From IMG/VR virus record IMGVR_UViG_3300030294_000092: a stretch of DNA of 38,811 nt; one strand, 5' to 3'. The notes under the pieces were generated by a model. The model made no database searches and was not told the DNA's origin. It saw only the letters and a program-made list of their open reading frames with translations. This stretch comes from a virus. A program made the position numbers and the translations under genes. Shown here piece by piece: positions 1 to 38,811 of the stretch; the stretch's first letter is position 1, and each line of letters opens with the position of its first letter.

Positions 1-127
1 TTCAGGGGCAATCTTCCGCTATCGGGAATGGTACGGAGCGTCAGGGGTTAACAAAGGCCTCGGCTCCACAGCCGATGTTGTTGCCAAAGAAATCCTTAAG
101 CAAGAAGCCGGTGAGCGTATTCGATAC
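1..127. repeat. Terminal overlap: nt 1-127 identical to nt 38685-38811 (circular-contig closure, or a short terminal redundancy)
   Basis: Direct base-by-base comparison of the first and last 127 nt: ttcaggggcaatcttccgc...gagcgtattcgatac is present at both ends. Confidence 0.95.
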
Positions 128-589
128 GCTGTGGCCGACCCTGCTATTTTTATCCGTAACGGCGGGCCTTCTATTGCTGAAAGCATGGCGAGGTGTCGCT
201 GGCGCCGGGCGGACAACAAACGCCTCGCCGGATGGGAAGCCTTGAGGCAGCGGATTGTGGGTGAGCAAGTATTGCAGGAAGTTGAAGGTCAGGAGAAACT
301 AGTCAATATTCCGATGCTCTATGCTGCCCACGAGTGCGAGGACTTCTGGCGCACAATGTCTACCCTCCAGCACGATGAAAAGAACCCTGAAGACCTCGAT
401 ACTGATGGCGAAGACCACATCGCCGATGAAGTCCGTTATGCCGCAATGTCCCGTCCTTGGAAACCCAAACCACTCCTACCCCCAAGAGGCTTGTCTCTCC
501 CGAAGCTACCTGGCGAGTTGACTTTCAACAACCTTGTAGAACGGAATAAGAAGCTTCGAATCGAAAGGGAACTTCACGATGGCTACTGA
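1..589 (+). CDS. terL: Terminase large subunit, C-terminal (nuclease) part. It continues 37762..38811 across the circular junction; the frame enters at nt 2 and unique sequence begins at nt 128.
   Basis: The frame of ORF 131..589 equals the frame of 37762..38811 once the 127-nt duplicate is removed. The C-terminal motif GEDHIADEVRYAAM is typical of terminase nuclease domains. Stop TGA at 587-589. Confidence 0.9.
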   Translation, partial: SGAIFRYREWYGASGVNKGLGSTADVVAKEILKQEAGERIRYAVADPAIFIRNGGPSIAESMARCRWRRADNKRLAGWEALRQRIVGEQVLQEVEGQEKLVNIPMLYAAHECEDFWRTMSTLQHDEKNPEDLDTDGEDHIADEVRYAAMSRPWKPKPLLPPRGLSLPKLPGELTFNNLVERNKKLRIERELHDGY

Positions 590-17877: not shown

Positions 17878-19125
17878 TTACTGAGCTGGCTCCAGCCTAT
17901 CCATACCTGGAAGGGAAGTAGCACCTGGAAGGAGCCAGTGGCCGTTGCCACGTTGCTGGAGGATCAGGTAGCCGGAACGGACGGCTCCGGTAATGACAGC
18001 TTCGAAATCCTGCATCTTAGGGAAGTGGGAGTGGACGAAGCGATAGGCTTCTTCGTAAGGGCAGCCTCCTCGTTTGGCCACATACCAGATTAGACGTTCG
18101 GCGTAGACAGCATCTTCGGACTTGCCGATTTTTGAGAAGACAAACTGCATATCAGGTTCGAGGTCGGTGACCATCTGGTCAGCTAGGGCGAGGTGTTCGG
18201 CTTCGATGACGAGGCGGTCGCCCTCGGCTGCAGCTAAGATCATGGCTAGTTTGTGGATGTGGGTTTGCTTTCGGGCGAGATAACCTCCGAAGCGTTCGTC
18301 GTCGAGGTGGAGGTGTTTGGCAGAGTAGTGGCGGTCGTACCATGCCTTGCCCCAGACTTTAGCCTCTGTAGAGAGCTTGTATTCGCCCACGAGGGTTGAG
18401 ATTTGGCTGAGATCTTCGACTAACCGTTGGGCGATTTGCTTCATATTCTCCGGGACAAAATCACCTGGATAAGCCACGAGTTTATCTTTTTTGTCAGCAT
18501 AGACAAACACACAGCGGGAAGTAAACCCTCCTCCGATCATGTATTCTGGGAAATTACCAGCGATCCAAGCGGGAGTCGTGCAGGCAATGAGATTGATCCA
18601 AGGGTTCTCGACGATGTCACAACCAGATCCCTTTGTTTTCTTCTCAAACGCCCCTTGCTTCCCATCCCACAGTGACACCAGGAGATCGACCATTTCCTTA
18701 TCCTGAGGATTGAGTAGATTGCCAAACTCAGAAGATTCGATTGTGAGGGCCGACATCGCATGGAATTCTCCTTCGTATTCGTAGGAAATGGTGGCTTCGG
18801 CAAAGCCGGTTACGAGAGCTTGCCATGTCACGACATCGGGGCCGAACTTGATGTCAGGGACTTTTTTGAGAAGTGACATTCCGATGGTGGCAGTGGTTGA
18901 CTTTGAGACGATCCCAGGTGGAGCCACGAGGATGATGTAGAAGTTAGGATACCAGCGGAAGTAGGCCATGTCGATCCAAACATGACGGCGAAGCGCTCCA
19001 GCGACTGTGGAAACAGCCGTCCAAAAGTGCATGTGAGGCGGGGCTTCGGAGAAGGCCGCATATTCCATGAAGGCCTTGATCCAGTTAGGATAGTGTCGTC
19101 TGCTCATTACCCGCAAGCTCCCCAT
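17878..19125 (-). CDS. DUF3987-like P-loop NTPase (possible replicative helicase or primase-associated protein)
   Basis: The pattern HFWTAVSTVAGALRRHVWID...FYIILVAPPGIVSKSTTA resembles DUF3987/VirE-type phage proteins, from memory. An alternative start, ATG 19107, forms TAATG with the polymerase stop and has a GGGAG SD. Confidence 0.45.
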   Translation of the reverse strand: MGSLRVMSRRHYPNWIKAFMEYAAFSEAPPHMHFWTAVSTVAGALRRHVWIDMAYFRWYPNFYIILVAPPGIVSKSTTATIGMSLLKKVPDIKFGPDVVTWQALVTGFAEATISYEYEGEFHAMSALTIESSEFGNLLNPQDKEMVDLLVSLWDGKQGAFEKKTKGSGCDIVENPWINLIACTTPAWIAGNFPEYMIGGGFTSRCVFVYADKKDKLVAYPGDFVPENMKQIAQRLVEDLSQISTLVGEYKLSTEAKVWGKAWYDRHYSAKHLHLDDERFGGYLARKQTHIHKLAMILAAAEGDRLVIEAEHLALADQMVTDLEPDMQFVFSKIGKSEDAVYAERLIWYVAKRGGCPYEEAYRFVHSHFPKMQDFEAVITGAVRSGYLILQQRGNGHWLLPGATSLPGMDRLEPAQ

Positions 19126-21494
19126 GAAGTTTCACTCGTTACCAGACCAACTGGAATGATCAGAGGTTCATCATAAGGTAGCGGAACAGAACAGCAGTCA
19201 AGAATCTTTCCGACAGCTTCGTCTCGAAGTGATGTGGGGAACTGTCCGGCGAGAGAGTCGTGAACCTGAAGCAGAACTTGGATTTCGGGGTGCCGGTCAT
19301 GGATATTCTTATAACCTCGGTTGATAAGGCAGGCAACGGAAGATTGAGGAATTGAAGCCACAGCTTGATTGAAGATGGTTCCCTCAATTCGATCGAAGAA
19401 GTAGTTTCGGTAGCCGAAGACGTTTTCAACATAGCGGTCAGATCTGACACGAGCGCATATGTCGTCTTGCCAAGATTTGATTTGAGGGAACTTTCCGTAA
19501 TACCAGGCTTGAATCCGCTCAACCTCTGAAGCATTGAGGCCAATTCTCCCAGCGAGGCCGGAGGGTGTCCCGAGGTAATTTGTGCCATGGCAAAGGGCTT
19601 TGAATAGTTTGTAGCTGGGATGGTGCTTGTCAATTGTTGGGTCACGGTAGTATTCCTTGGCTACTTCAACGTAGGGCTTGAGACCTTCAGCAAACATGGC
19701 TTTCATCTCGGTGCAGTCGGATTCCCAGACTACGATGCGGAGATCAGCGCTGTCGAGGTCGATATCGAAGAAGGTTTTGTCAGGATCGGGGATGAAGAGT
19801 TTTCGAACATTAGGGAGGCCTGAGGCTTCATCACCTTTCGGAATGTTTTGCAGGTTCATCCCTGATCCGAAGGCGTTCTCGGAAGAAGAGAAGCGATAGG
19901 TTTCTGTTCCGGCGATATTGAAGGAACATCGCATACGTCGGTCTTCGTCAACAGGGGCTTCCAAAAATGTTGACCGAAAAACGCCAAGTGACCGGAGTTC
20001 TCTGATAACATCACATAGTGGGAGTAGCAAGGGTTCTCTGGCACTAATCCTCTCCAAGGCTGAGTCATCGGTGGTTGGGTTGCCGGTTTTTCGGGATATG
20101 ACAGGCTTCTGAGCGAAGAGGCGAAAGAAGGTGTCTTGCATTTGCTTGGGGGACTTGATGTTGAGGGGGAAGCCAAGGACGGAGGCTAACCAATCTTCTC
20201 GGGTTTTGATGGCTTCGGCCAGTTCTCCTGAGAGCCTCCCTTTGGATTGGTTATCAACGCAGATGCCGGTAATCATGGTCTGAAGCACGGGGTAGAAGAG
20301 GGATTGCTGGAAGTCATGGACGGAACGGAGTTTGGGCCAAGTTGGGGCAAAAGCGTCGATCATAGATTGCTGGACTGTGTCGATTTCGAAGGTTCGGATG
20401 CAGTCGCGGCAGTTGTAAATCCAGAGTTGTTTCTCACCCAGTTTTGGGTCCCAGTTTTTGGACTCGTCTTTCCAATAGATGTGATGCTTTGAATACATCG
20501 CTGAGAGGAAGTCGAGCCCCTTCTGCATGGAAGAGAACATCGAGTGCTGGGCCAGCATGGTGTCACGGTGGAACCGAGGGATGAAGTTCAGATGCCGGTA
20601 GAAATACTGAGCGTCGTAGATAAAGTTCTGCCCTATGATCTGGGCATTCGGGTGTGTGAGGAGCTGGTAGAGGAGGAAAGTAAGATAGGCTTCTTCATCC
20701 TCGCGCCAGTAGTTGATGCGGGATTGCCAGTTAGGCATGGCGGCAACCACGGCTCGGATCTGGGGGATGCAGATGGCATTGGTTTCTGACCAAGCAATGC
20801 CGATGCAAGCCAAATGTCCCCCACGGGTTTCCACGTCAACGGCAAGCTTGGTTGGGGATACCCGCACTTGTCCAAGTAGGTCTTGGAGACACTTGGCCGC
20901 TTCGGGGAAGCTAGGTTCGGCGATAAAACATTCCACTGGGGGAAGGATTGGCTCGTTACTGCAAGCGAGGTTCCAAGCTTTCCGTATATCATGGATAGCG
21001 ATGTTGCGCTCTTTCCAGAGCATTTGGATATAGGCAGGAGTATAAGTGGGAATGACATGGCAAGTATGGCCTCCTGGGGTTGTATATTCGAGGATTGAAG
21101 ACCGCCAAGCCTTCACCCCCCACTTCCCTGTCAATGCGAAAAGAACTCCGTTACCGAGGCCCAGAATAATCTTAGGCTTGACCAACTCGATATCAGCCAC
21201 AAGCCGAGAAAGCCCAGCCAGCACACAAGGCTTAACAAACTTATCATGCAGAGCTTTGTGATCGGGTATAATGTCCTTTTTGGCTTTGGCAACTTGGGAT
21301 TCGAAGTTTTGCCCACAGCAAGGTTCCTTGATAAGAGCCGAGATGAAGCATTGGGAGCGGTTGGCTCCGGCTTCGGAGAGCATTCGATCGAACTCTCTGT
21401 CGTTGAGGATGGTTGTGGACTGGAGGTCACGGTAGGAGACGCATTCAGCCACGATCATCATTTGGGCATTGGCAGGGCCATAGGGTTGGAGCAT
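19107..21494 (-). CDS. Family A DNA polymerase (3'-5' exonuclease plus polymerase) with an N-terminal UDG-superfamily-like domain
   Basis: ExoI LAVDVETRG; ExoII IIGQNFIYDAQY; ExoIII YNCRDCIRT. Motif A DIDLDSADLRIV; motif B KLFKALCHGTNYLG; motif C LLQVHDSLAGQ. The N-terminal ~190 aa (PYGPANAQMMIVAECVS...VIPTYTPAYI) follow the layout of a family-4 UDG. Confidence 0.9.
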   Translation of the reverse strand: MLQPYGPANAQMMIVAECVSYRDLQSTTILNDREFDRMLSEAGANRSQCFISALIKEPCCGQNFESQVAKAKKDIIPDHKALHDKFVKPCVLAGLSRLVADIELVKPKIILGLGNGVLFALTGKWGVKAWRSSILEYTTPGGHTCHVIPTYTPAYIQMLWKERNIAIHDIRKAWNLACSNEPILPPVECFIAEPSFPEAAKCLQDLLGQVRVSPTKLAVDVETRGGHLACIGIAWSETNAICIPQIRAVVAAMPNWQSRINYWREDEEAYLTFLLYQLLTHPNAQIIGQNFIYDAQYFYRHLNFIPRFHRDTMLAQHSMFSSMQKGLDFLSAMYSKHHIYWKDESKNWDPKLGEKQLWIYNCRDCIRTFEIDTVQQSMIDAFAPTWPKLRSVHDFQQSLFYPVLQTMITGICVDNQSKGRLSGELAEAIKTREDWLASVLGFPLNIKSPKQMQDTFFRLFAQKPVISRKTGNPTTDDSALERISAREPLLLPLCDVIRELRSLGVFRSTFLEAPVDEDRRMRCSFNIAGTETYRFSSSENAFGSGMNLQNIPKGDEASGLPNVRKLFIPDPDKTFFDIDLDSADLRIVVWESDCTEMKAMFAEGLKPYVEVAKEYYRDPTIDKHHPSYKLFKALCHGTNYLGTPSGLAGRIGLNASEVERIQAWYYGKFPQIKSWQDDICARVRSDRYVENVFGYRNYFFDRIEGTIFNQAVASIPQSSVACLINRGYKNIHDRHPEIQVLLQVHDSLAGQFPTSLRDEAVGKILDCCSVPLPYDEPLIIPVGLVTSETSWGACG

Positions 21495-21559: not shown

Positions 21560-22891
21560 TCATAGCATAGCCGGTTCAGAGTCGAGGGCATTGAGACGGT
21601 TGACTGAGATACCGTAATATTCGGAATTTAGTTCAAGTCCCGTAGCATAGAGCTTAAGCCCGTGGGCCGCTGGGAAAATTGTCCCTGAGCCTGCGAAAGC
21701 ATCGAGAACAGTGTCGCCGGGGCTGGTCGAACGCTTGAGCAGGTCGATGTAGAGTTCAACAGGCTTATTGGCTCCGTGGGTGAGATTCTCCTCGAGCTTG
21801 CAAGGGATAACGTCAGGGTAGATGCCAGTGACTTTTCGACCACCTTTAAGGGCATAGAGAATATATTCATGCTGTCTCCTAGGGCCTTGGTCGGGAAGGG
21901 GTACACGGCCAGAACCGAGTTTGTAGACGATGATAGGGGTGCGGAATACATACCAGCCAGCAGCTTGCATCTTGGCCTTGAGGAGGTGGAATTTATCGAA
22001 ATCACAGAAGATGTAAGCATGGGCTTGAGGCTTTGCCACGCGGAAGGCCTCTGAGCAGAAGGCGTCCATGAGCTTATTCCAAGCTTCCGGACTATCATCA
22101 TAATGATGCTCTGAATTAACCATTTTCCCCCCACCGTCTCCAAAGTTCTGGGCGTTCATCCCATAAGGTGGGTCAGTGAGGATAACGTCAAATTGATTGT
22201 CAGGGCTTTCGGCCATCCACTGCAGACAGTCAACGTGGAATAGCTTGTGTGCAGAGGAGTTATAAGAAACACCGACAGTTTCCGCCAGCCGTTGGTGTTT
22301 TTGCCGAGCTTCCTCACGTTTAAGGGCTTTGAAAGCTTCTTTTTCGTTCTTGGCTCCGGATACCAGAGGATTGGAGAGATGGTCGGCGAGGAGAATTGAC
22401 TGGCGGTTTGTCGTGTAGTCAGCCGAAGCTTGACCACCGCTTTCTGATACTTCGCGGATCGTGTCCGCGATTGAGTGTGATTGGCCCACCATCTCGGCTT
22501 GAGCAGTACGCAGTCGATGGAGACGGGCAAGGGCTTCCGAGCGTTCCTGCCAAGTAAGATCTTGACGCTTGAGATTTTCATCGAGTTCGGCCTCTTCGGC
22601 TTCGAGGGGGGTTAGTTCGCCAAGGGTGACGATGGGGAGGTGATCGGGGGGGATTTGGAGGCCGTTGTGGCGCGTTCCGTCTCCGAGGAGCCAAATAGTC
22701 TCTAGGGCGCGCAATCGACGCTCGCCGGCCACAAGAACCGGCCCCTCGAGGGTTTCTCGCACAACAATCGGGTGGAGTAGCCCAAGACTGGAAATTGAGT
22801 TTGCGAGGTCTGTCAGAGCCTCGGGATCAAATTCTTTCCGCTGGCGATCAGGGGAGATGATTAGTTTCGAACGGTGGATGTGGGAAGTCAT
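21560..22891 (-). CDS. ParB-like nuclease domain fused to an N6-adenine/N4-cytosine DNA methyltransferase
   Basis: The N-terminus IISPDRQRKEFD...LGLLHPIVVRE...VLVAGERRLRA is ParB/Srx-like. DVILTDPPYG is motif IV (DPPY). VLDAFAGSGTIFPAA is motif I. This order is that of the beta class. Confidence 0.85.
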   Translation of the reverse strand: MTSHIHRSKLIISPDRQRKEFDPEALTDLANSISSLGLLHPIVVRETLEGPVLVAGERRLRALETIWLLGDGTRHNGLQIPPDHLPIVTLGELTPLEAEEAELDENLKRQDLTWQERSEALARLHRLRTAQAEMVGQSHSIADTIREVSESGGQASADYTTNRQSILLADHLSNPLVSGAKNEKEAFKALKREEARQKHQRLAETVGVSYNSSAHKLFHVDCLQWMAESPDNQFDVILTDPPYGMNAQNFGDGGGKMVNSEHHYDDSPEAWNKLMDAFCSEAFRVAKPQAHAYIFCDFDKFHLLKAKMQAAGWYVFRTPIIVYKLGSGRVPLPDQGPRRQHEYILYALKGGRKVTGIYPDVIPCKLEENLTHGANKPVELYIDLLKRSTSPGDTVLDAFAGSGTIFPAAHGLKLYATGLELNSEYYGISVNRLNALDSEPAML

Positions 22892-29958: not shown

Positions 29959-30051
29959 GGTACTTACTCCGTAGGGCAATCCTACGGGATTTTGATAGCA
30001 CAAAACTACGGGTTGTTCTAGAAAAATTTATAACTGATCGAAAATTAATGG

Positions 30052-30093
30052 AACAAAAGAAAAAGCCCCTAGAGGGCGGTTCCTCTAGGGGCT
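30052..30093 (-). terminator. Rho-independent terminator (- strand)
   Basis: On the - strand: agcccctagagg, loop aaccgc, cctctaggggct (12-bp perfect stem), followed by ttttcttttg. Confidence 0.85.
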
Positions 30094-30119
30094 TAATCAG
30101 CCAATGGGTTGGAGTTGGG

Positions 30120-32975: not shown

Positions 32976-33410
32976 TCAATCCTCTCTCTTGAAAAAGGGA
33001 TTTGACTTCCGCACTTCCGGCTTCTCAGCCAACAGCTTCAAATCCTCGTTGATCTGCTTTTCCTCAGGGGTTTGGAGGTCAGCCTCCCCGATCCCGAGGG
33101 ACTGCAACTGAAGTTCGAGTTCAGAAAGTGACTTCCTCGGCAGGAAGGTAATCACGCAGGGGTCGGAGTTATCCTCGGGCTTGGCCAACGTTGGGACGAT
33201 ATACTCCGCTGCGGCTTCAAGCACCGAGTTGAAGGCTTCTCGATTGCGGTAAGGCCGAATCGCTCGGTAAAGCCCAACCCGCATGGAGGTCGCGACTGAG
33301 AAGTTCGAGGCATTAATAGTGATTGGTTTAAGCCCGAGGTCTTTCTCTTCATAAGCTTTCTTCCAAAGCGCGAGATAGATGCGGTTGAGCTGGGATAGGT
33401 CTTTGGCCAT
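32976..33410 (-). CDS. Hypothetical protein (144 aa)
   Basis: Second gene of the early operon. ATG 33410. No motif recognised. Confidence 0.55.
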   Translation of the reverse strand: MAKDLSQLNRIYLALWKKAYEEKDLGLKPITINASNFSVATSMRVGLYRAIRPYRNREAFNSVLEAAAEYIVPTLAKPEDNSDPCVITFLPRKSLSELELQLQSLGIGEADLQTPEEKQINEDLKLLAEKPEVRKSNPFFKRED

Positions 33411-33441
33411 GATGGGGCTTTCGAGCAGGGTGGTGGGAATT

Positions 33442-33476
33442 GGGCTGGTCAGGGTGAGAGGTTCCCTGACCAGCCC
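33442..33476 (-). other. 13-bp perfect hairpin between the first two early genes; part of a three-element set (GGTCAGGG / CCCTGACC / GGTCAGGG) able to form alternative structures
   Basis: gggctggtcaggg (33442-33454) pairs with ccctgaccagccc (33464-33476). A third element, ggtcaggg, lies at 33479-33486 next to the stop codon of the 33488 gene. No U-tract follows. Confidence 0.6.
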
Positions 33477-33487
33477 AAGGTCAGGGC

Positions 33488-33682
33488 TTAAACCCCTTCG
33501 ACGATCATAGCAACGATGCCTTGGGGTTCGATCTGACCAGCGACGAAGGCTTCCGCGTCAGTTTGAGTGAGATAAGTTCCAATGAGCTTGCTTTCGACGA
33601 GGACATTGAAGCCGACAGGCAGTTCAGCCGTTGCGGGTTCGGAAGTTTCGACAATATCGGTAGTGGTGGGCTTGAGAGCCAT
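33488..33682 (-). CDS. First early-arm gene: small, very acidic protein (64 aa)
   Basis: GAAAGG SD. Counted from the translation: 9 Asp/Glu and 2 Lys. It is the first ORF downstream of the divergent control region. Confidence 0.55.
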   Translation of the reverse strand: MALKPTTTDIVETSEPATAELPVGFNVLVESKLIGTYLTQTDAEAFVAGQIEPQGIVAMIVEGV

Positions 33683-33813
33683 TGGGAATTACCTTTCGAT
33701 TGAGAAGCTGCGGCATAGGGGCCACGGATTGACGTTGTATCATTACGGGGATTGAGGCAATAGGGGATTTATCGCTGGAGGTTTTGAGCTCGCGGGCAGG
33801 TATTAAAACCGAG

Positions 33814-33829
33814 TTGACGGGGGGCCGAT
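33814..33829 (+). promoter_or_regulatory. TTGACG-G5-CCGAT box (copy without an obvious downstream gene)
   Basis: TTGACGGGGGGCCGAT shares ACGGGGGGCCGAT with 34128-34140. No convincing -10 element follows (TACCCG). Confidence 0.3.
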
Positions 33830-34124
33830 CATCCCCTACCCGCGCGCGCCCACGCTCACCCGCGCAGTTTATAAGGCCTACGGGGTTTTGACCTCTCAAC
33901 ACCCCGGAATGTTTTGCCCATAAATCCTGACATTTTCAAACTTGCTACCAACCATTAAAGCAGTAACCCCCAACAGTTGATTGACCGATTGGAGGATGGT
34001 TGATGGCTGGCTAGGGATTTGACCTAGGGGGATTGGATGGGCTACTAGCCTAGGCAAGGAGGAACCCGCCTAACAGCGCTGGTGTGGCATTTTAGTCACG
34101 GTTTCGGACGGCAGGTGGGTAAAA

Positions 34125-34140
34125 TGAACGGGGGGCCGAT
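34125..34140 (+). promoter_or_regulatory. TGAACG-G5-CCGAT box, a candidate promoter for the + strand cassette
   Basis: TGAACGGGGGGCCGAT is followed 16 nt later by AAAAAT. It lies about 105 nt upstream of ATG 34245. Confidence 0.35.
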
Positions 34141-34244
34141 TATTTGAAAAATACTGTTTGCACTCCCCCAACGCTGGCCCTAGAGAGAGGTTGCTAGAGC
34201 GGTTAGCGGGGCGGTCTCCGCTAGGCTCTAGCGGAGGATTGACT

Positions 34245-34439
34245 ATGACCAAAATTAAGCTAACCCACCGTGGGGCAAACCATGAGATCAACCTCGCCCG
34301 GCTCCCCTTGGAAAGCCAAAAATACCTACTGGAGCAAGGTTTGCGGACCTACCTAGAGGATAGCCTCGCCGCTGGGGTCCCGGCGAACGCGGCTCTAGCC
34401 AAACTTCATATCTTGCCTGCCGCAAATAACCCGCGATAA
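34245..34439 (+). CDS. Hypothetical protein (64 aa), possibly a small DNA-binding/regulatory protein
   Basis: GGAGGA SD 7 nt upstream of the ATG. EINLARLPLESQKYLLEQGLRTYLEDSL is loosely RHH-like (weak evidence). Confidence 0.55.
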   Translation: MTKIKLTHRGANHEINLARLPLESQKYLLEQGLRTYLEDSLAAGVPANAALAKLHILPAANNPR

Positions 34440-34442
34440 CCC

Positions 34443-34474
34443 TAGAGGCTAGGCTCCAAACCCCCTAGCCTCTA
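34443..34474 (+). other. 11-bp perfect hairpin between the two cassette genes (no U-tract)
   Basis: tagaggctagg (34443-34453) pairs with cctagcctcta (34464-34474). Confidence 0.6.
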
Positions 34475-34518
34475 TAGATAGCGCGGATTGCTGTCAACCC
34501 GACAAAGGAATGACTACC

Positions 34519-35058
34519 ATGGCTAAAAAGTCCCTAATCGAAACAACCATTGCTGCTGATTTTTCGGCAATCACCCTCAAGGTTGAGGGGGCGGGTGCTA
34601 TCAATATCACTGTCGCCAATCTATCGGATGAATTGCGCGCTAGAGCATTGGCCCATGGGTTGGTGCAAAAAATCTCTGACGCCGCCGCGATTAAACGCGA
34701 TGACTTGACCGGCGACCCTCTCGCCGATGCAAAAACAAAATTCGCGGCAATGGAGGCAGTTGCCAACCGTCTAATTGACGGCGAGTGGGCCGCCCGCAAT
34801 GGTGACGGCACCGGGCCGGTTAGCGGGATTATCTACCTCGCATTTGAGCAATGGGCGCTCGCCAAGGCCACATCCGCCAAAAAGCCCCTACTCCCCGCTG
34901 CTATCCGCGCGGCCTATGCTGGGAAGGATCGTGCTGGGCAGCTCGCCCTCCGCAACGTCCCCGAAATCGCCGCGATCATTGAGGAGATCAAGGTCAAACG
35001 TGGCGCGGGGAAAACCGTGGGTTCGGGTGATGCTCTATTAGCAGATTTGGGCCTCTAA
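34519..35058 (+). CDS. Paralog of the 30120..30713 early protein (179 aa), unknown family
   Basis: ATG 34519 lies 9 nt after an AAGGA SD (ATG 34510 is too close to it). Conserved blocks are shared with the 30120 protein, and it ends in GDALLADLGL. Confidence 0.7.
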   Translation: MAKKSLIETTIAADFSAITLKVEGAGAINITVANLSDELRARALAHGLVQKISDAAAIKRDDLTGDPLADAKTKFAAMEAVANRLIDGEWAARNGDGTGPVSGIIYLAFEQWALAKATSAKKPLLPAAIRAAYAGKDRAGQLALRNVPEIAAIIEEIKVKRGAGKTVGSGDALLADLGL

Positions 35059-35070
35059 TCCACCCAACCT

Positions 35071-35101
35071 AGGGCAGGGTTATTCCTGCCCTCATTTTTA
35101 G
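35071..35101 (+). terminator. Rho-independent terminator
   Basis: agggcagg (35071-35078), loop gttatt, cctgccct (35085-35092), followed by cattttta. Confidence 0.7.
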
Positions 35102-35126
35102 ACCTATCCGGTGAGGCAATTATCCT

Positions 35127-35240
35127 ATGACCCATCCCCCCCGCCACCCACTCCTAATCGCATTGGGATGGCTAGCTCTCGCGGTTGTTCTGTCGGCAGG
35201 CGCTGTCTCACTAACCCTCCTACTCGCGGCCATGCCCTAA
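35127..35240 (+). CDS. Candidate micro-ORF: 37-aa single-pass membrane peptide MTHPPRHPLLIALGWLALAVVLSAGAVSLTLLLAAMP
   Basis: My own translation, ATG 35127 to TAA 35238-35240 (below the 60-aa cutoff of the ORF track). One uninterrupted hydrophobic helix follows a basic N-terminus. Weak SD (GAGG about 11 nt upstream). Bracketed by two terminators. Confidence 0.35.
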   Translation: MTHPPRHPLLIALGWLALAVVLSAGAVSLTLLLAAMP

Positions 35241-35277
35241 CCCCTCGGTTAGTCTGCTGCCCTAACTCAGCCCCCAA

Positions 35278-35309
35278 CCCGCTAGGCCTAACCGTCTAGC
35301 GGGTTTTTT
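35278..35309 (+). terminator. Rho-independent terminator
   Basis: cccgctag (35278-35285), a 10-nt loop, ctagcggg (35296-35303), followed by tttttt (35304-35309). Confidence 0.8.
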
Positions 35310-35760
35310 CGTGCCCATATCCGTTCTCATTTTGTCCGACGATTTGAGTAGGGTCTAGGGCGTTTGGCTATAGAGATAGCGGGATAGCCTCTAATCGCCC
35401 TCATGGCCCACCAATCCGAGGATTTGACCCTATCCCCCGGCCATGCCGCCATCACCTATCACCTCTCCCCCACCCCTCCATTATCAAACAGGGTAGGGGT
35501 CACAGGAGGGGTCTCCACCCATCTCCCAATGTGCCATGTAACATTCCGGCCCCCCTCCATCCTCGGGGATCCCATTGTGTTTTTCATCTCCCCGGTATCT
35601 CTCTTCTCGTAATTTTTTTTCTCTGAGCACAGAGGATACAAATGGGGGGATGGTGGGAGAGGTGGGCCGATCGGTGTGTCGGTTGCATACTACACCATCC
35701 CCCGTCTCTCCTCGCTATGTTATCAACGTCACCCCGTTTGCTACATGGTACTATGGCTAA

Positions 35761-36004
35761 CGGGTAGCCACCCCCCCGGCTACCCCTAGCCCGTCCTGGC
35801 CCATCCCCTGCCATCACGGCCCACCCTTCACTAGCCCCTCCATCGGCCCACCGGCCCCACCCTTGCGCCTGCCCTATCCCTCGCCAGCCACCGGCCCCCG
35901 CCAGCCACCATTCCCTCTCACCTCACCCCCCTCCCTTGCCCCTAGAAAACCAGTGGGGGTGGGTCTTCCCGGTTGGGGGTAGGGCTAAGGGGGGTGTTTA
36001 GGGG
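35761..36004 (+). repeat. Strand-asymmetric block: about 180 nt C-rich (with GGCCCACC and GCCAGCCACC repeats) switching to about 50 nt of G-runs with a G-quadruplex-type pattern
   Basis: My count for 35821-35880 is 35 C and 8 G. GCCAGCCACC at 35883-35892 and 35900-35909. GGCCCACC at 35818 and 35845 (also at 35405, and inverted at 35661). G-runs G5-N2-G3-N4-G6-N6-G4 at 35975-36004. Confidence 0.8.
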
Positions 36005-36146
36005 CATTACAGCTCTTCGTGCATGGCTACCTTTCAACCCTCCGTAATCCTCTCAGCTACTTCACTCCTAGTTCAAAGTCCTACCGGAGGAAAATCCCAA
36101 AGCCCCTGAAGAATCCGGAGGGTTGGAAGTTCAACTAGCCGGAGGG

Positions 36147-36176
36147 TTGACGGGGGGCCAAGAGGACTGCTCAAAT
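36147..36176 (+). promoter_or_regulatory. TTGACG-G5-CC box plus TCAAAT, a candidate promoter for the late arm
   Basis: TTGACGGGGGGCCA (36147-36160), with TCAAAT at 36171-36176 after an 18-nt spacer. A second TTGACG at 36183 is followed 17 nt later by TAAGTT. TerS starts at 36245. Confidence 0.4.
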
Positions 36177-36221
36177 CATTGCTTGACGGCCCGCCGGTCG
36201 AGGGCTAAGTTCCTCCCAACT

Positions 36222-36235
36222 CCCCTGCCATAAGG
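36222..36235 (+). promoter_or_regulatory. CCCCTGCCA-T-AAGG leader motif upstream of the putative TerS gene
   Basis: CCCCTGCCATAAGGA matches CCCCTGCCAAGGA at 3925 and 6822, with a one-nt insertion. Confidence 0.35.
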
Positions 36236-36244
36236 ACACCCTCC

Positions 36245-36838
36245 ATGATCGACTATGAGAAGATTGCGGATAGCATCGACTCCCCAGACCCCGCGCCCGT
36301 GGGCCCCTCGGCTTATGCCCCAAACCGCGATCCTGGCAAATACGTTGGAATCGCTTCAGCAAAGGGCTATGGCCAAGGCCCCGAAGATGGCTACAACGGC
36401 ACACCCCGCATCCAAAAGTGCCGTTACACCCATGAAGCCCTGATTGACGTAATCATCGCTGAGCCTTCCCTCAAGCAATATGAACTCGCAGCGCGGTTTG
36501 ATCGCTCGACTCAGTGGGTCACCGTCGTCATGGGGTCCGACGCCTTTCAAGCCGCTCTCGCTAAGCGCCGGGATGAACTCACTGACCCTTTTCTCATAGC
36601 CACGATTGAAGAGCGTTTTCGTGGCTTAGCACAGCAATCTCTCCAAGTCATCGCGGCAAACCTCGAAAAGACCCAAAACGCTGATATCGCCCTCAAGGCT
36701 CTCGATATTTCGGCTAAAGCTCTTGGTTTCGGCTCCCGTTCTGCTGGCCAAACCAACATCCAAAATAACTTCGTAGTAGAGTTGCCGGGAAAGATCACGG
36801 ATCAAACTACCTGGGCAAAAACCTACACTCAAGAGTGA
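36245..36838 (+). CDS. Putative terminase small subunit (197 aa)
   Basis: First gene of the late arm, upstream of terL. The HTH-like segment LKQYELAARFDRSTQWVTVVMGSDAF is followed by helical oligomerisation-like sequence. Call is by position and HTH only. Confidence 0.5.
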   Translation: MIDYEKIADSIDSPDPAPVGPSAYAPNRDPGKYVGIASAKGYGQGPEDGYNGTPRIQKCRYTHEALIDVIIAEPSLKQYELAARFDRSTQWVTVVMGSDAFQAALAKRRDELTDPFLIATIEERFRGLAQQSLQVIAANLEKTQNADIALKALDISAKALGFGSRSAGQTNIQNNFVVELPGKITDQTTWAKTYTQE

Positions 36839-36864
36839 TCTCAAGCTAACAAGGGTTTTGTTTT

Positions 36865-37758
36865 ATGTCCAGTCAAGCTTTCACCGGGCCTTCCACTGTC
36901 GGACTGATTGTATCCGATACAGACAGTAACGGGGTTGCCGGGGCTATCCCAGCCTCTACTCCTGATGCTGTTCTTGACAGTTACACTTCCATCGGCAACC
37001 TATCAGCACTTAATGTCACTTTGCAAGCTCCTACCCAAGGCTACATGGGCGGGTCGTTTCAGATCACCAGCATCGGCACCGGCAACACGGTGATGTTTGA
37101 GCATTCCAATGATGGGGTGACTTGGGCGTTTCTGCCTGCGACTGTTGCAGGCAATGCGACCAATGCGCCTACTGGCCCTACGGGTTATACAGCGGTTGGC
37201 CTTTATACGTTCATCTCTTCGGCGGCGCAGGTGCGGGCGCGTGTGTCGGTTTATGGCAGCGGGACGGTGAGCGTGACGCTGGTGCAAAAGCGGGTGGTGG
37301 CGCCGGTGGCTGGTATCTCGCTGGCATCGAGTTCGGCGGCGATTGGCGGCGTGGTTTTGACCGCAGGCACGGCGGCCATTGGCAATGTGAACATGGCAAC
37401 GGGCTATACGGACAGCACGGCGGCGCTGGGCGCGGCGGGAGTGTTTACCGGGACGGGCCGGGCGTTTAACTCGACCTTTGGCGCGCAATATGTGGCGTTT
37501 AATGCGCAGTCGCAGGCCGATCAGGCGGGCACGCTGTCTATCGAAGCCAGCTATGACACGGGGGCGAATTATTACCCGGTGGTGAGTGTGGCGGCTTCTG
37601 CGGTGGTAAATGCGGCGGGAGCGACCAGCTATGTGGCGCAGGCGCGCGTGCCGGTGATGGGCGCGTTTGGCGCGGCGACGCTTTATCGCGTGGTGTATAA
37701 GAATGGCGCAACGGCGCAGGGCGCTTTGCGGGTGGTGAGCAGCTTTACGGCAGGATAA
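36865..37758 (+). CDS. Hypothetical protein (297 aa) with two beta-rich G/A/T/S/V halves, inserted between the putative TerS and TerL
   Basis: ATG 36865. The stop lies 3 nt before the terL ATG. The halves ...SFQITSIGTGNTVMFEHSNDGVTWAFL...VRARVSVYGSGTVSVTLV and ...GTLSIEASYDTGANYYPVV...YRVVYKNGATAQGALRVV look like tandem beta-sandwich/jelly-roll units. Confidence 0.65.
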   Translation: MSSQAFTGPSTVGLIVSDTDSNGVAGAIPASTPDAVLDSYTSIGNLSALNVTLQAPTQGYMGGSFQITSIGTGNTVMFEHSNDGVTWAFLPATVAGNATNAPTGPTGYTAVGLYTFISSAAQVRARVSVYGSGTVSVTLVQKRVVAPVAGISLASSSAAIGGVVLTAGTAAIGNVNMATGYTDSTAALGAAGVFTGTGRAFNSTFGAQYVAFNAQSQADQAGTLSIEASYDTGANYYPVVSVAASAVVNAAGATSYVAQARVPVMGAFGAATLYRVVYKNGATAQGALRVVSSFTAG

Positions 37759-37761
37759 TTC

Positions 37762-38811
37762 ATGTCTCCTCCTACTACCCAAATTAGCATCTGGAAACCT
37801 CAGGAAGGCCCCCAGACAGCACTTCTCCAGTGCCCGATCTTCGAAGTCTTCTACGGTGGTGCCCGAGGTGGAGGGAAGACTGAATCTTCTATCGGGGACT
37901 GGCTTCAGCACGCTAACCTCTATGGTGAGAACGCCATCGGAATCTTTGTCCGTCGGAAGTTCAAGCAACTTGCTGAGGTCATTGCTCGAACGAAGCAACT
38001 TTTCCCAAAACTCGGAGCCAAATACAATGAACAAAAAGCCGAATGGCTCATGCCTGGAGGCGCTCGGCTTAAGTTCGTCTACCTTGAAAGGGATTCTGAT
38101 GCCGAAGAATACCAAGGCCACAACTACACCCGCGTCTATGTGGAAGAAGTTACTAACTTTCCCAGTCCTGGCCCTATTGACAAGCTCCGTGCTACTCTCC
38201 GCTCCGGCGCTGGTGTGCCTGTGGGTATGCGACTGACGGGCAACCCCGGAGGTCCAGGCCATAACTGGGTTAAAAAGCGCTACATCGACCCAGACCCCAG
38301 AGGCTTCAAAATAATAGAAGAAACCTGCGATGTGGAGATTGCCGATGAAATCCAAACAGTCAGCCTCTCGCGGGTCTTCATCCCGTCGAAGCTTGGCGAT
38401 AACATGCTCCTGCTTCGCAATGATCCTACTTACGTCCTGCGTCTCCGTCAATCTGGCTCCGAAGCTCTCGTCAAAGCTTGGCTCGAAGGAAACTGGGATA
38501 TTGTCGACGGAGCCTACTTCACTGAACTCGACGAGCACCTTCATGGCAGGGATGGAGATATCATCCGCTGGGCCCCGCCTGCAACTGTCCGCTTCCGTGC
38601 CTTTGACTGGGGTAGTGCAAAGCCTTTCTCGGTGGGTTGGTGGGCGATCGCGGACGGAACTTGGCCCAGAGACAATCCCCTCCCTTCAGGGGCAATCTTC
38701 CGCTATCGGGAATGGTACGGAGCGTCAGGGGTTAACAAAGGCCTCGGCTCCACAGCCGATGTTGTTGCCAAAGAAATCCTTAAGCAAGAAGCCGGTGAGC
38801 GTATTCGATAC
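37762..38811 (+). CDS. terL: Terminase large subunit, N-terminal ATPase part plus the start of the nuclease domain. Open at the window end; continues at nt 128.
   Basis: My translation: MSPPTTQISIWKPQEG...FYGGARGGGKTES (Walker A), RVYVEEVTNF (Walker B), LTGNPGGPGHNWVKKRY, FRAFDWGSAKPFSVGWW (nuclease Asp). There is no stop before 38811. It is missing from the ORF track because it lacks a stop. Confidence 0.92.
   Translation, partial: MSPPTTQISIWKPQEGPQTALLQCPIFEVFYGGARGGGKTESSIGDWLQHANLYGENAIGIFVRRKFKQLAEVIARTKQLFPKLGAKYNEQKAEWLMPGGARLKFVYLERDSDAEEYQGHNYTRVYVEEVTNFPSPGPIDKLRATLRSGAGVPVGMRLTGNPGGPGHNWVKKRYIDPDPRGFKIIEETCDVEIADEIQTVSLSRVFIPSKLGDNMLLLRNDPTYVLRLRQSGSEALVKAWLEGNWDIVDGAYFTELDEHLHGRDGDIIRWAPPATVRFRAFDWGSAKPFSVGWWAIADGTWPRDNPLPSGAIFRYREWYGASGVNKGLGSTADVVAKEILKQEAGERIRY
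38685..38811. repeat. Terminal overlap, second copy (identical to nt 1-127)
   Basis: Direct comparison. Confidence 0.95.

Follow-up and report, generated by a model that had tools for sequence, protein, structure and literature searches.

Here we describe a gene-poor interval of 2.6 kb (positions 33683-36244) in the genome of a phage known only from metagenomes, IMG/VR record IMGVR_UViG_3300030294_000092, whose complete 38,811-nt sequence as analysed is called the window. The interval separates a leftward early arm from a rightward late arm and contains a G-rich block of about 85 nt that is conserved throughout the phage family. We tentatively interpret the whole interval as a composite cis-acting hub and the block as a DNA site recognised by a protein; its most probable function, predicted with less than even confidence, is that of the packaging (pac) site of a headful terminase. 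The gene o179, the 85-bp block and a gene for a helix-turn-helix (HTH) protein resembling the small terminase (TerS) form a universal trio that marks the control centre of the family. The features on which the argument turns are the following.

34519-35058, plus strand: o179, encoding a family-universal protein; in most relatives it is on the minus strand, as the first early gene
35312-35946, no strand assigned: GC-rich tract free of open reading frames (ORFs), very C-rich on the plus strand, with no coding signal and no gene call
35947-36033, plus strand: family-universal G-rich DNA block of ~85 nt, from a profile search of related loci
36245-36838, plus strand: HTH protein at the small-terminase position (TerS-like), 197 aa, first gene of the late arm

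A family-universal block beside the TerS-like gene

The family is large and entirely uncultured; its related loci, of which more than 100 were recovered, come from metagenomes of peat, freshwater and other sources. The loci compared here (~100) were collected from IMG/VR by searches based on the large terminase (TerL) and on o179. At the DNA level, neither the interval nor the block alone matched any of 50,697 phage records by megablast or blastn. Between relatives, hardly any non-coding DNA can be aligned, even where TerL is 88% identical, and within the window's interval alignment to a relative succeeded solely for o179 and the block. The first-pass annotation of the window had proposed a comparison with related phages to learn whether the region is conserved as sequence, as structure or only as a gap; conservation as sequence was found at this one block, and the rest of the non-coding DNA could not be aligned.

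The block consists of three GGGGGT repeats (at 35955, 35975 and 35990, thus spaced by 20 and 15 nt), followed by GTTTA, GGGCAT and, about 17 nt further on, YGYGC. It was detected with nhmmer in 79 of the 97 loci that contain TerS (65 distinct copies), and 15 of the 18 loci lacking it do not have enough upstream flank (<350 nt). It is always present as a single copy on the TerS strand, and the window yields one match even when E values up to 10 are admitted. The distance to the extrapolated TerS start is 98-342 nt in 74 of the 79 loci and 560-830 nt in the other five; in the window, 212 nt separate the block from the TerS-like ATG. This association with TerS is retained whichever strand o179 takes, and also when cargo ORFs are inserted upstream. 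A degenerate pattern of 20 bases derived from the block matched 11 IMG/VR contigs, 10 of them in this family, and gave 23 matches in 596 Gb of bacterial genomes, only two of which are family contigs, both phage-like. The 85-bp nhmmer profile, or the narrower 20-base pattern, can be used to recognise family members and orient their genomes. A chance match of the pattern lies in an unrelated AT-rich phage (locus L131, 6212-8828), where it coincides with the C-terminal end of a 433-aa ORF; a reverse transcriptase comes next, and the layout looks like a diversity-generating retroelement.

The block is not coding, because relatives differ in it by indels of 1-2 nt. When 30 aligned copies were examined with RNAalifold, only two base pairs and no consensus structure were obtained, and the block of the window folds no better than its shuffles (z = +0.7). 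Together with the lack of an Rfam match, the indels and the missing consensus fold identify the block as a DNA signal conserved in sequence, not an RNA structure. The same data make it highly unlikely that a structured noncoding RNA, or a long leader with structure, is encoded in the ORF-free stretch 35312-36244. Over 35306-36244 the plus strand does fold somewhat better than shuffles (z = -2.8, 0/20), local hairpins are present, and a short motif after the terminator is shared by a subset of relatives. However, C-rich next to G-rich sequence folds stably as a matter of course, no Rfam match was obtained at gathering thresholds or at E up to 5, neither consensus structure nor covariation is seen in the block, which is the only conserved part, and the remainder of the stretch is not conserved in sequence in any relative. 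A noncoding-RNA locus, one of the options in the first-pass annotation, is disfavoured on these grounds. We also considered and rejected G-quadruplex formation as the conserved property of the block: a canonical motif is found in only 12 of the 65 copies, whereas in herpesviruses G-quadruplex potential is conserved.

The record closest to the phage is the metagenomic sequence MW202489.1 (TerL 66% and portal 43% identical). There, an annotated coding sequence for a 'hypothetical protein' (249-527; locus L001) overlaps the block (approximately 337-420) and is probably a false gene call, which calls for caution in annotation. MW202489.1 has the same gene order as the window and the same block between its arms, in the manner of small podophages with divergent early and late regions. 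Its region measures ~0.6 kb, compared with 2.6 kb in the window; the inversion of the o179 cassette and the length of the C-rich spacer account for the difference.

Homologues of o179 number 115. Upstream flank of at least 3 kb is available for 25 distinct relatives, and every one of them has the gene within 3.5 kb of the TerS-like gene. It is on the strand opposite to TerS in 24 relatives, where it is the first gene of the early arm and lies 0.34-1.2 kb from TerS, and it has the same direction as TerS, as in the window, in 14 relatives, at 1.1-2.2 kb. The o179 cassette is inverted here relative to most relatives, and this split in orientation, with the accompanying distances, indicates that the long region of the window is partly a product of the inverted cassette. 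The o179 protein has no match in Pfam, among PDB sequences or among annotated PHROGs. Its AlphaFold2 model (pLDDT 82) gave no informative PDB match with Foldseek, and three unnamed matches in BFVD at E <=1e-3.

The block as a candidate packaging site

Several observations lead us to favour a pac site. The block remains strictly linked to the HTH/TerS-like gene, in a constant orientation, despite an inversion and cargo insertions, and there is one copy per genome, with a repeat architecture. Its position next to the TerS-like gene and its uniqueness within each genome are both as expected of pac. The HTH is conserved in the product of this downstream gene, and a small-terminase PHROG match of one homologue (below) points the same way. 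Circular assemblies, obtained for this phage and two relatives, fit permuted genomes. The format of a G-run, a T-rich core and a second G-run recalls pac1 of herpesviruses, although this is a resemblance only. Finally, the closest isolate is Pseudanabaena phage Pam5, whose TerL is 43% identical to that of the window and has been placed in the P22-like headful group (PMC9382816).

The following arrangement is proposed. The divergent region 33683-34244 must hold the promoters from which the early arm is transcribed leftwards and a small cassette rightwards; o179 is the only demonstrable gene of this cassette, which is an inverted unit closed by two intrinsic terminators. The next ~640 nt are an untranslated spacer, very C-rich on the plus strand. 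At the block, probably a double-stranded DNA site recognised by a protein, the HTH small-terminase-like protein would assemble the terminase, which would then start headful packaging of concatemers. Beyond it, one or more late promoters would be embedded in operator-like repeats particular to this phage, which may be the operators of an equally phage-specific regulator. The C-rich tract and the two terminators might keep early rightward transcription out of the late operon, in a manner resembling Rho utilisation.

Five points weigh against this scheme. First, the TerS assignment derives from gene position and weak profile matches. The protein is 41% identical to the product of the gene that overlaps the TerL start in MW202489; it has no match in Pfam or PDB and a marginal one among PHROGs (E 0.046, a regulator family), and one of its homologues matches phrog_2538 (terminase small subunit) at 1.9e-4, the others giving weak HTH matches only. 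Second, pac in P22-like phages is usually inside terS and not upstream of it. Third, 6-8 canonical DnaA boxes stand directly against the block in two relatives, pointing to replication. Fourth, the candidate late promoters of the window fall below the threshold of our promoter scan. Fifth, a Rho-dependent insulator does not explain the C-rich tract in relatives whose o179 is on the opposite strand. In MW202489.1, the TerS-like HTH gene is 557-1111 and carries the annotation 'cyclic nucleotide-binding domain'.

Comparison with characterised systems gives a mixed picture. In SPP1-type phages, pac comprises pacL, pacC and pacR around the start of the small-terminase gene. Like the block, the SPP1 site is a single-copy cis element near terS of a headful phage, with short repeated boxes and promoter-proximal non-coding DNA upstream. 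It differs in that there is no sequence similarity and the block is G-rich rather than bent or A-tract DNA. The lineage of the TerL studied here is, through Pam5, probably P22-like and headful. In P22 and Sf6 the pac sites are inside the terS coding sequence, whereas the conserved DNA of this family is non-coding and 100-340 nt upstream of TerS.

In herpesvirus pac1, G-rich tracts surround a T-rich core (PMC13595911). A similar order, G-run, TGTTTA, G-run, is read in the 3' half of the block, which stands beside terminase genes of the same ATPase-nuclease lineage; unlike the block, pac1 belongs to terminal repeats and works jointly with pac2. Should a pac function be established for the block, with its G-runs around a T-rich centre, bacterial viruses would have a counterpart of the pac1 format. 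Divergent regulatory regions that combine pac, an origin and promoters are of a known kind; the libraries searched here contain no description of the specific element, of its universality in the family, of the trio of o179, block and TerS, or of the C-rich flank with its conserved composition. The trio offers a concrete target for studies of packaging or replication.

The circular assemblies also bear on physical ends. The first 127 nt of the window (1-127) are identical to its last 127 (38685-38811), the signature of a circular assembly with k=127, so that the true phage genome measures 38,684 bp. A second public assembly of the same phage has 38,825 bp with k=141 (ENA ERZ27248744, JGI 3300031521). 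The window ends are an assembly artefact, and the late arm runs on past them into position 1. We considered whether the region holds fixed genome ends (cos or direct terminal repeats), which we judge very unlikely. Contigs of nine relatives end 22-456 nt upstream of the block, and several contigs with o179 also stop between o179 and TerS. These ends are scattered, however, and one begins in a poly-G run; three genomes close as circles with assembler overlaps of 121-141 nt; and the related TerL of Pam5 belongs to the headful group. Contig ends were accordingly rejected as evidence for termini, two of the three full-length contigs checked being circular overlaps. Of the functions listed in the first-pass annotation (origin, packaging site or physical termini, noncoding RNA), a cis element such as a packaging site or an origin would need has thus been retained, while fixed termini, like the noncoding RNA, have not. 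Many contigs of relatives, among them L046, L041, L023, L049, L025, L042 and L097, break in the C-rich tract shortly before the block, and L046 (1-21) starts in the poly-G run; this looks more like a weak point of assembly or sequencing at extreme C/G runs than a biological end.

Replication and transcription as possible alternative functions

The tract immediately left of the block is distinguished by composition. Between 35501 and 36000 GC content is 0.61 and GC skew -0.25, and over the 300 nt before 35955 the skew reaches -0.42, the lowest of any 300-nt window in the genome. Considering 28 relatives and the window, the matching tract is within the lowest 5% of skew in 20 of the 29 sequences. 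No relative could be aligned to 35312-35946, and no shared sequence or k-mer stands out across relatives. In L018, the closest relative with this flank, ~700 nt of ORF-free, C-rich DNA of 64-70% GC occupies the same place. Thus, the sequence of the tract is unique to this phage, and its composition is conserved in relatives.

The main rival to a packaging site, which we think somewhat unlikely, is that the block and the tract to its left form an origin of replication. The variable flank would recruit an initiator (host DnaA in some relatives), and the block would serve in unwinding, helicase loading or R-loop priming of the family-A polymerase. Two moderately related phages speak for it: L074 (8369-8640) has eight and L088 (8923-9095) six DnaA boxes (consensus TTATCCACA, <=1 mismatch) within 300 nt, ending exactly at the 5' edge of the block, and no comparable cluster was found elsewhere in 1.65 Mb of family loci. 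In this, the two resemble DnaA-box origins such as oriC, P1 oriR and RK2 oriV. The sharp switch from C-rich to G-rich skew at the block in most relatives and the location between divergent arms are also consistent with an origin. The phage has genes for PolA, a DUF3987 protein and a Dda-like helicase but for no recognisable initiator, and the universal early protein o179, always encoded nearby, could bind such a site.

On the other side, DnaA boxes (<=1 mismatch) are absent from the region in the window and in 36 other relatives. In most relatives, repeat arrays upstream of the block do not exceed dinucleotide shuffles, and neither do those of the window (the observed count was reached by 3 of 30 shuffles); with no shared k-mer, iteron arrays were rejected as a general feature. 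There is no AT-rich unwinding element beside the block, around which GC content is 0.56-0.65. Within the region the 50-nt window lowest in GC is at 33908, while the most AT-rich 50 nt of the whole genome are in the early arm, at 30013-30062 (GC 0.22). In addition, the cumulative genome-wide GC skew has no minimum at the region, and the block tracks TerS, not replication genes. The early-arm gap of ~115 nt that holds this AT-rich segment (30004-30119) could itself be an origin instead, or a strong promoter.

A third function to be weighed, and one we consider unlikely, is control of late-operon transcription, the block being an upstream activator site or an alternative-sigma promoter read by o179 or the HTH protein. 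Its fixed position upstream of the first late gene, the three direct GGGGGT repeats, the spacing of the GTTTA and YGYGC boxes (17-18 nt apart, typical of -35/-10 pairs) and the constant proximity of the conserved early protein o179 would fit such a role. Yet, judged by eye, the boxes are unlike the consensus sequences of sigma-70, sigma-54, sigma-28 or extracytoplasmic function (ECF) promoters; sigma-28, sigma-54 and ECF readings were rejected on spacing or key bases. A scan of ten large early proteins and of the region's ORFs revealed no sigma-like domain, and five relatives have 560-830 nt between block and TerS. Furthermore, where a good sigma-70 promoter can be recognised, its distance downstream of the block is about 100 nt: in MW202489 a clean TTGACA-17-TAGGAT lies between block and TerS, and relatives have TATAAT-like boxes there. 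The late promoter therefore appears to be downstream of the block, which is probably not part of the late transcript.

In the window, two candidate tandem late promoters were read from the sequence, by analogy with the promoter of MW202489, and operator-like repeats stand next to them.

36035-36044 (inverted), 36116-36125 and 36140-36149, no strand assigned: operator-like repeats CGGAGGGTTG, with only these three exact copies in the genome
36147-36176, plus strand: candidate late promoter TTGACG-18-TCAAAT
36183-36211, plus strand: candidate late promoter, in tandem with the preceding one, TTGACG-17-TAAGTT

A sigma-70 scan of 33300-36900 found no promoter (2.2 expected). At the place matching the CGGAGGGTTG repeats, relatives have repeats of their own, different in sequence, that flank TATAAT-like boxes.

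Initiation of replication and of packaging might also share one site, made up of the block and its C-rich flank, which would be an undescribed kind of phage cis element; we regard this as decidedly unlikely. On this view, the block would yield a G-rich strand, by transcription or by opening of the DNA, that forms an R-loop and primes the family-A polymerase, comparably to ColE1 or the mitochondrial conserved sequence block (CSB); the flank would recruit host DnaA in some lineages, the block would be the entry site of the adjacent terminase, and the universal early protein o179, which has no known fold relative, would be a dedicated binding factor.

Coding content, repeats and neighbouring genes

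The first-pass annotation had described a gene-poor 2.6-kb region between divergent arms, and its coordinates and content hold. Tight packing elsewhere was also confirmed, in that neighbouring long ORFs overlap or are at most ~115 nt apart (by eye from the ORF list, without formal calling). Both arms begin at the edges of the region: the early gene at 33488-33682 has homologues in three relatives, and 36245-36838 is homologous to the gene directly upstream of TerL. Two ORFs had been called convincing. One, 34519-35058, is a demonstrable gene, whereas the other, 34245-34439, is an orphan with a weak coding signal. A codon-usage score trained on long ORFs gave a clear signal in the region only at 34510-35058, a weak one at 34245-34439, and none on either strand in 33683-34244 or 35060-36244. 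Public gene calls (ENA ERZ27248744, JGI 3300031521) comprise a 64-aa ORF, the 179-aa ORF starting at 34519 and a 37-aa ORF (35127-35240) missing from the earlier list. ORFs account for at most 849 of the 2562 nt (33%), and conserved coding sequence for 540 nt (21%).

The remaining features of the coding cassette and its surroundings are as follows.

33488-33682, minus strand: first gene of the leftward early arm, 64 aa, with coding signal and homologues in L019, L020 and L030
33683-34244, no strand assigned: divergent non-coding region, without coding signal and unalignable to any relative
34245-34439, plus strand: o64, an orphan 64-aa ORF with a GGAGG Shine-Dalgarno sequence and weak coding signal, called in public copies
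34431-34486, plus strand: strong hairpin/palindrome between o64 and o179, with an 11-bp perfect stem and no T-run (DNA fold z = -5.7, 0/200 shuffles)
35071-35101, plus strand: intrinsic terminator 1, directly 3' of o179, a 9-bp stem (35071-35092) and T5 (z = -3.7)
35127-35240, plus strand: o37, an orphan hydrophobic ORF of 37 aa, called in a public copy, without coding signal
35276-35311, plus strand: intrinsic terminator 2, after o37, a 12-bp stem (35276-35305) and T6 (z = -3.5)
35317-35337, plus strand: short motif ATATCCGTTCTCATTTTGTCC just after terminator 2, common to L036, L022, L048, L038, L019 and L050 (pairwise blastn, alignment)
35645-35703, no strand assigned: 11-bp inverted repeat GGGGGATGGTG / CACCATCCCCC enclosing GGTGGGCCGATCGG (z = -2.6)

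No homologue of o64 or o37 was found anywhere in the related-locus set, and their status as genes is uncertain. The absence of a credible ORF over 35310-36244 was borne out, with no coding signal on either strand; public calls leave 1004 nt (35241-36244) empty between the 37-aa ORF and the 197-aa gene at 36245. That this stretch hides real or decayed protein genes, frameshifted or in an alternative code, is barely credible. Relatives do carry ORFs of 110-150 aa in the equivalent slot, but tblastx between the slots gave only short, low-complexity matches to the window in multiple frames and on both strands, and neither coding signal in any frame nor a gene call in the public copies is present; pseudogene remnants were rejected for the same low-complexity matches. 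A search of the region for tRNA and tmRNA found nothing. An attP or integration site was likewise rejected: a tRNA-like sequence and a host counterpart are lacking, and no integrase domain turned up in a scan that covered ten large early proteins and the ORFs of the region but not the small early ORFs.

The repeats, hairpins and compositional anomalies said to concentrate in the region are all real, as judged by exact counts, hairpin z-scores and skew. They do not amount to one feature, however, and resolve instead into a conserved gene cassette, two terminators and operator-like repeats specific to this phage. Hairpins across the region have fold z-scores from -2.6 to -5.7, and several relatives have a comparably strong terminator at the position of terminator 2. 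The 11-mer GGKGGGCCGAT, which is specific to this phage, has four exact copies, all in 33819-35852 (33819, 34130, 35661 and, inverted, 35842), and seven matches at <=1 mismatch, a count reached by none of 100 shuffles. Its spread over the early/o64 side and the spacer would fit operators of a phage-specific regulator. The 11-mer of the inverted repeat at 35645-35703 has an inverted copy at 35842-35852, and CCCCTCCAT has three exact copies, all in 35473-35843.

The divergent region 33683-34244 carries GTTGACGGGGGGCCGATC (33813-33830) and AACGGGGGGCCGATT (34127-34141). A further motif, GTTGACGGGGGGCC, has two exact copies, with motif sites at 33813-33826, 34124-34137 and 36146-36159. In many relatives the 5' edge of the block carries a sequence, TCGACCGGGGGG, that this motif resembles; extra copies in relatives are few, and L019 has one ~180 nt upstream of its o179 gene. 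As a weak lead, one protein may read both the GTTGACGGGGGGCC-type sites and the block.

Beyond the interval, the late arm extends rightwards to about 17.8 kb, and the early arm runs leftwards from 33682, encoding the DUF3987 protein, the family-A polymerase, a ParB-methylase, a nuclease and the Dda-like helicase. Two genes of the late arm are as follows.

37762-38684 and 1-589, plus strand: TerL, spanning the window ends, 66% identical to TerL of MW202489
579-2696: portal gene

TerL gave no useful match against PDB sequences. Between the TerS-like gene and TerL, an ORF of 297 aa rich in Ala, Gly, Ser and Thr (36865-37758, plus strand) shows good coding signal. TerS-like gene and TerL are adjacent or overlapping in most relatives, and a homologue of the 297-aa ORF was found only in L022. 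On the opposite strand, a 513-aa ORF (37003-38544) is a shadow ORF. In the early arm, the family-A DNA polymerase (19107-21494, minus strand) has an N-terminal domain resembling uracil-DNA glycosylase, and the next gene, at 21560-22891 (minus strand), encodes an N6/N4 DNA methylase fused to a ParB N-terminal domain.

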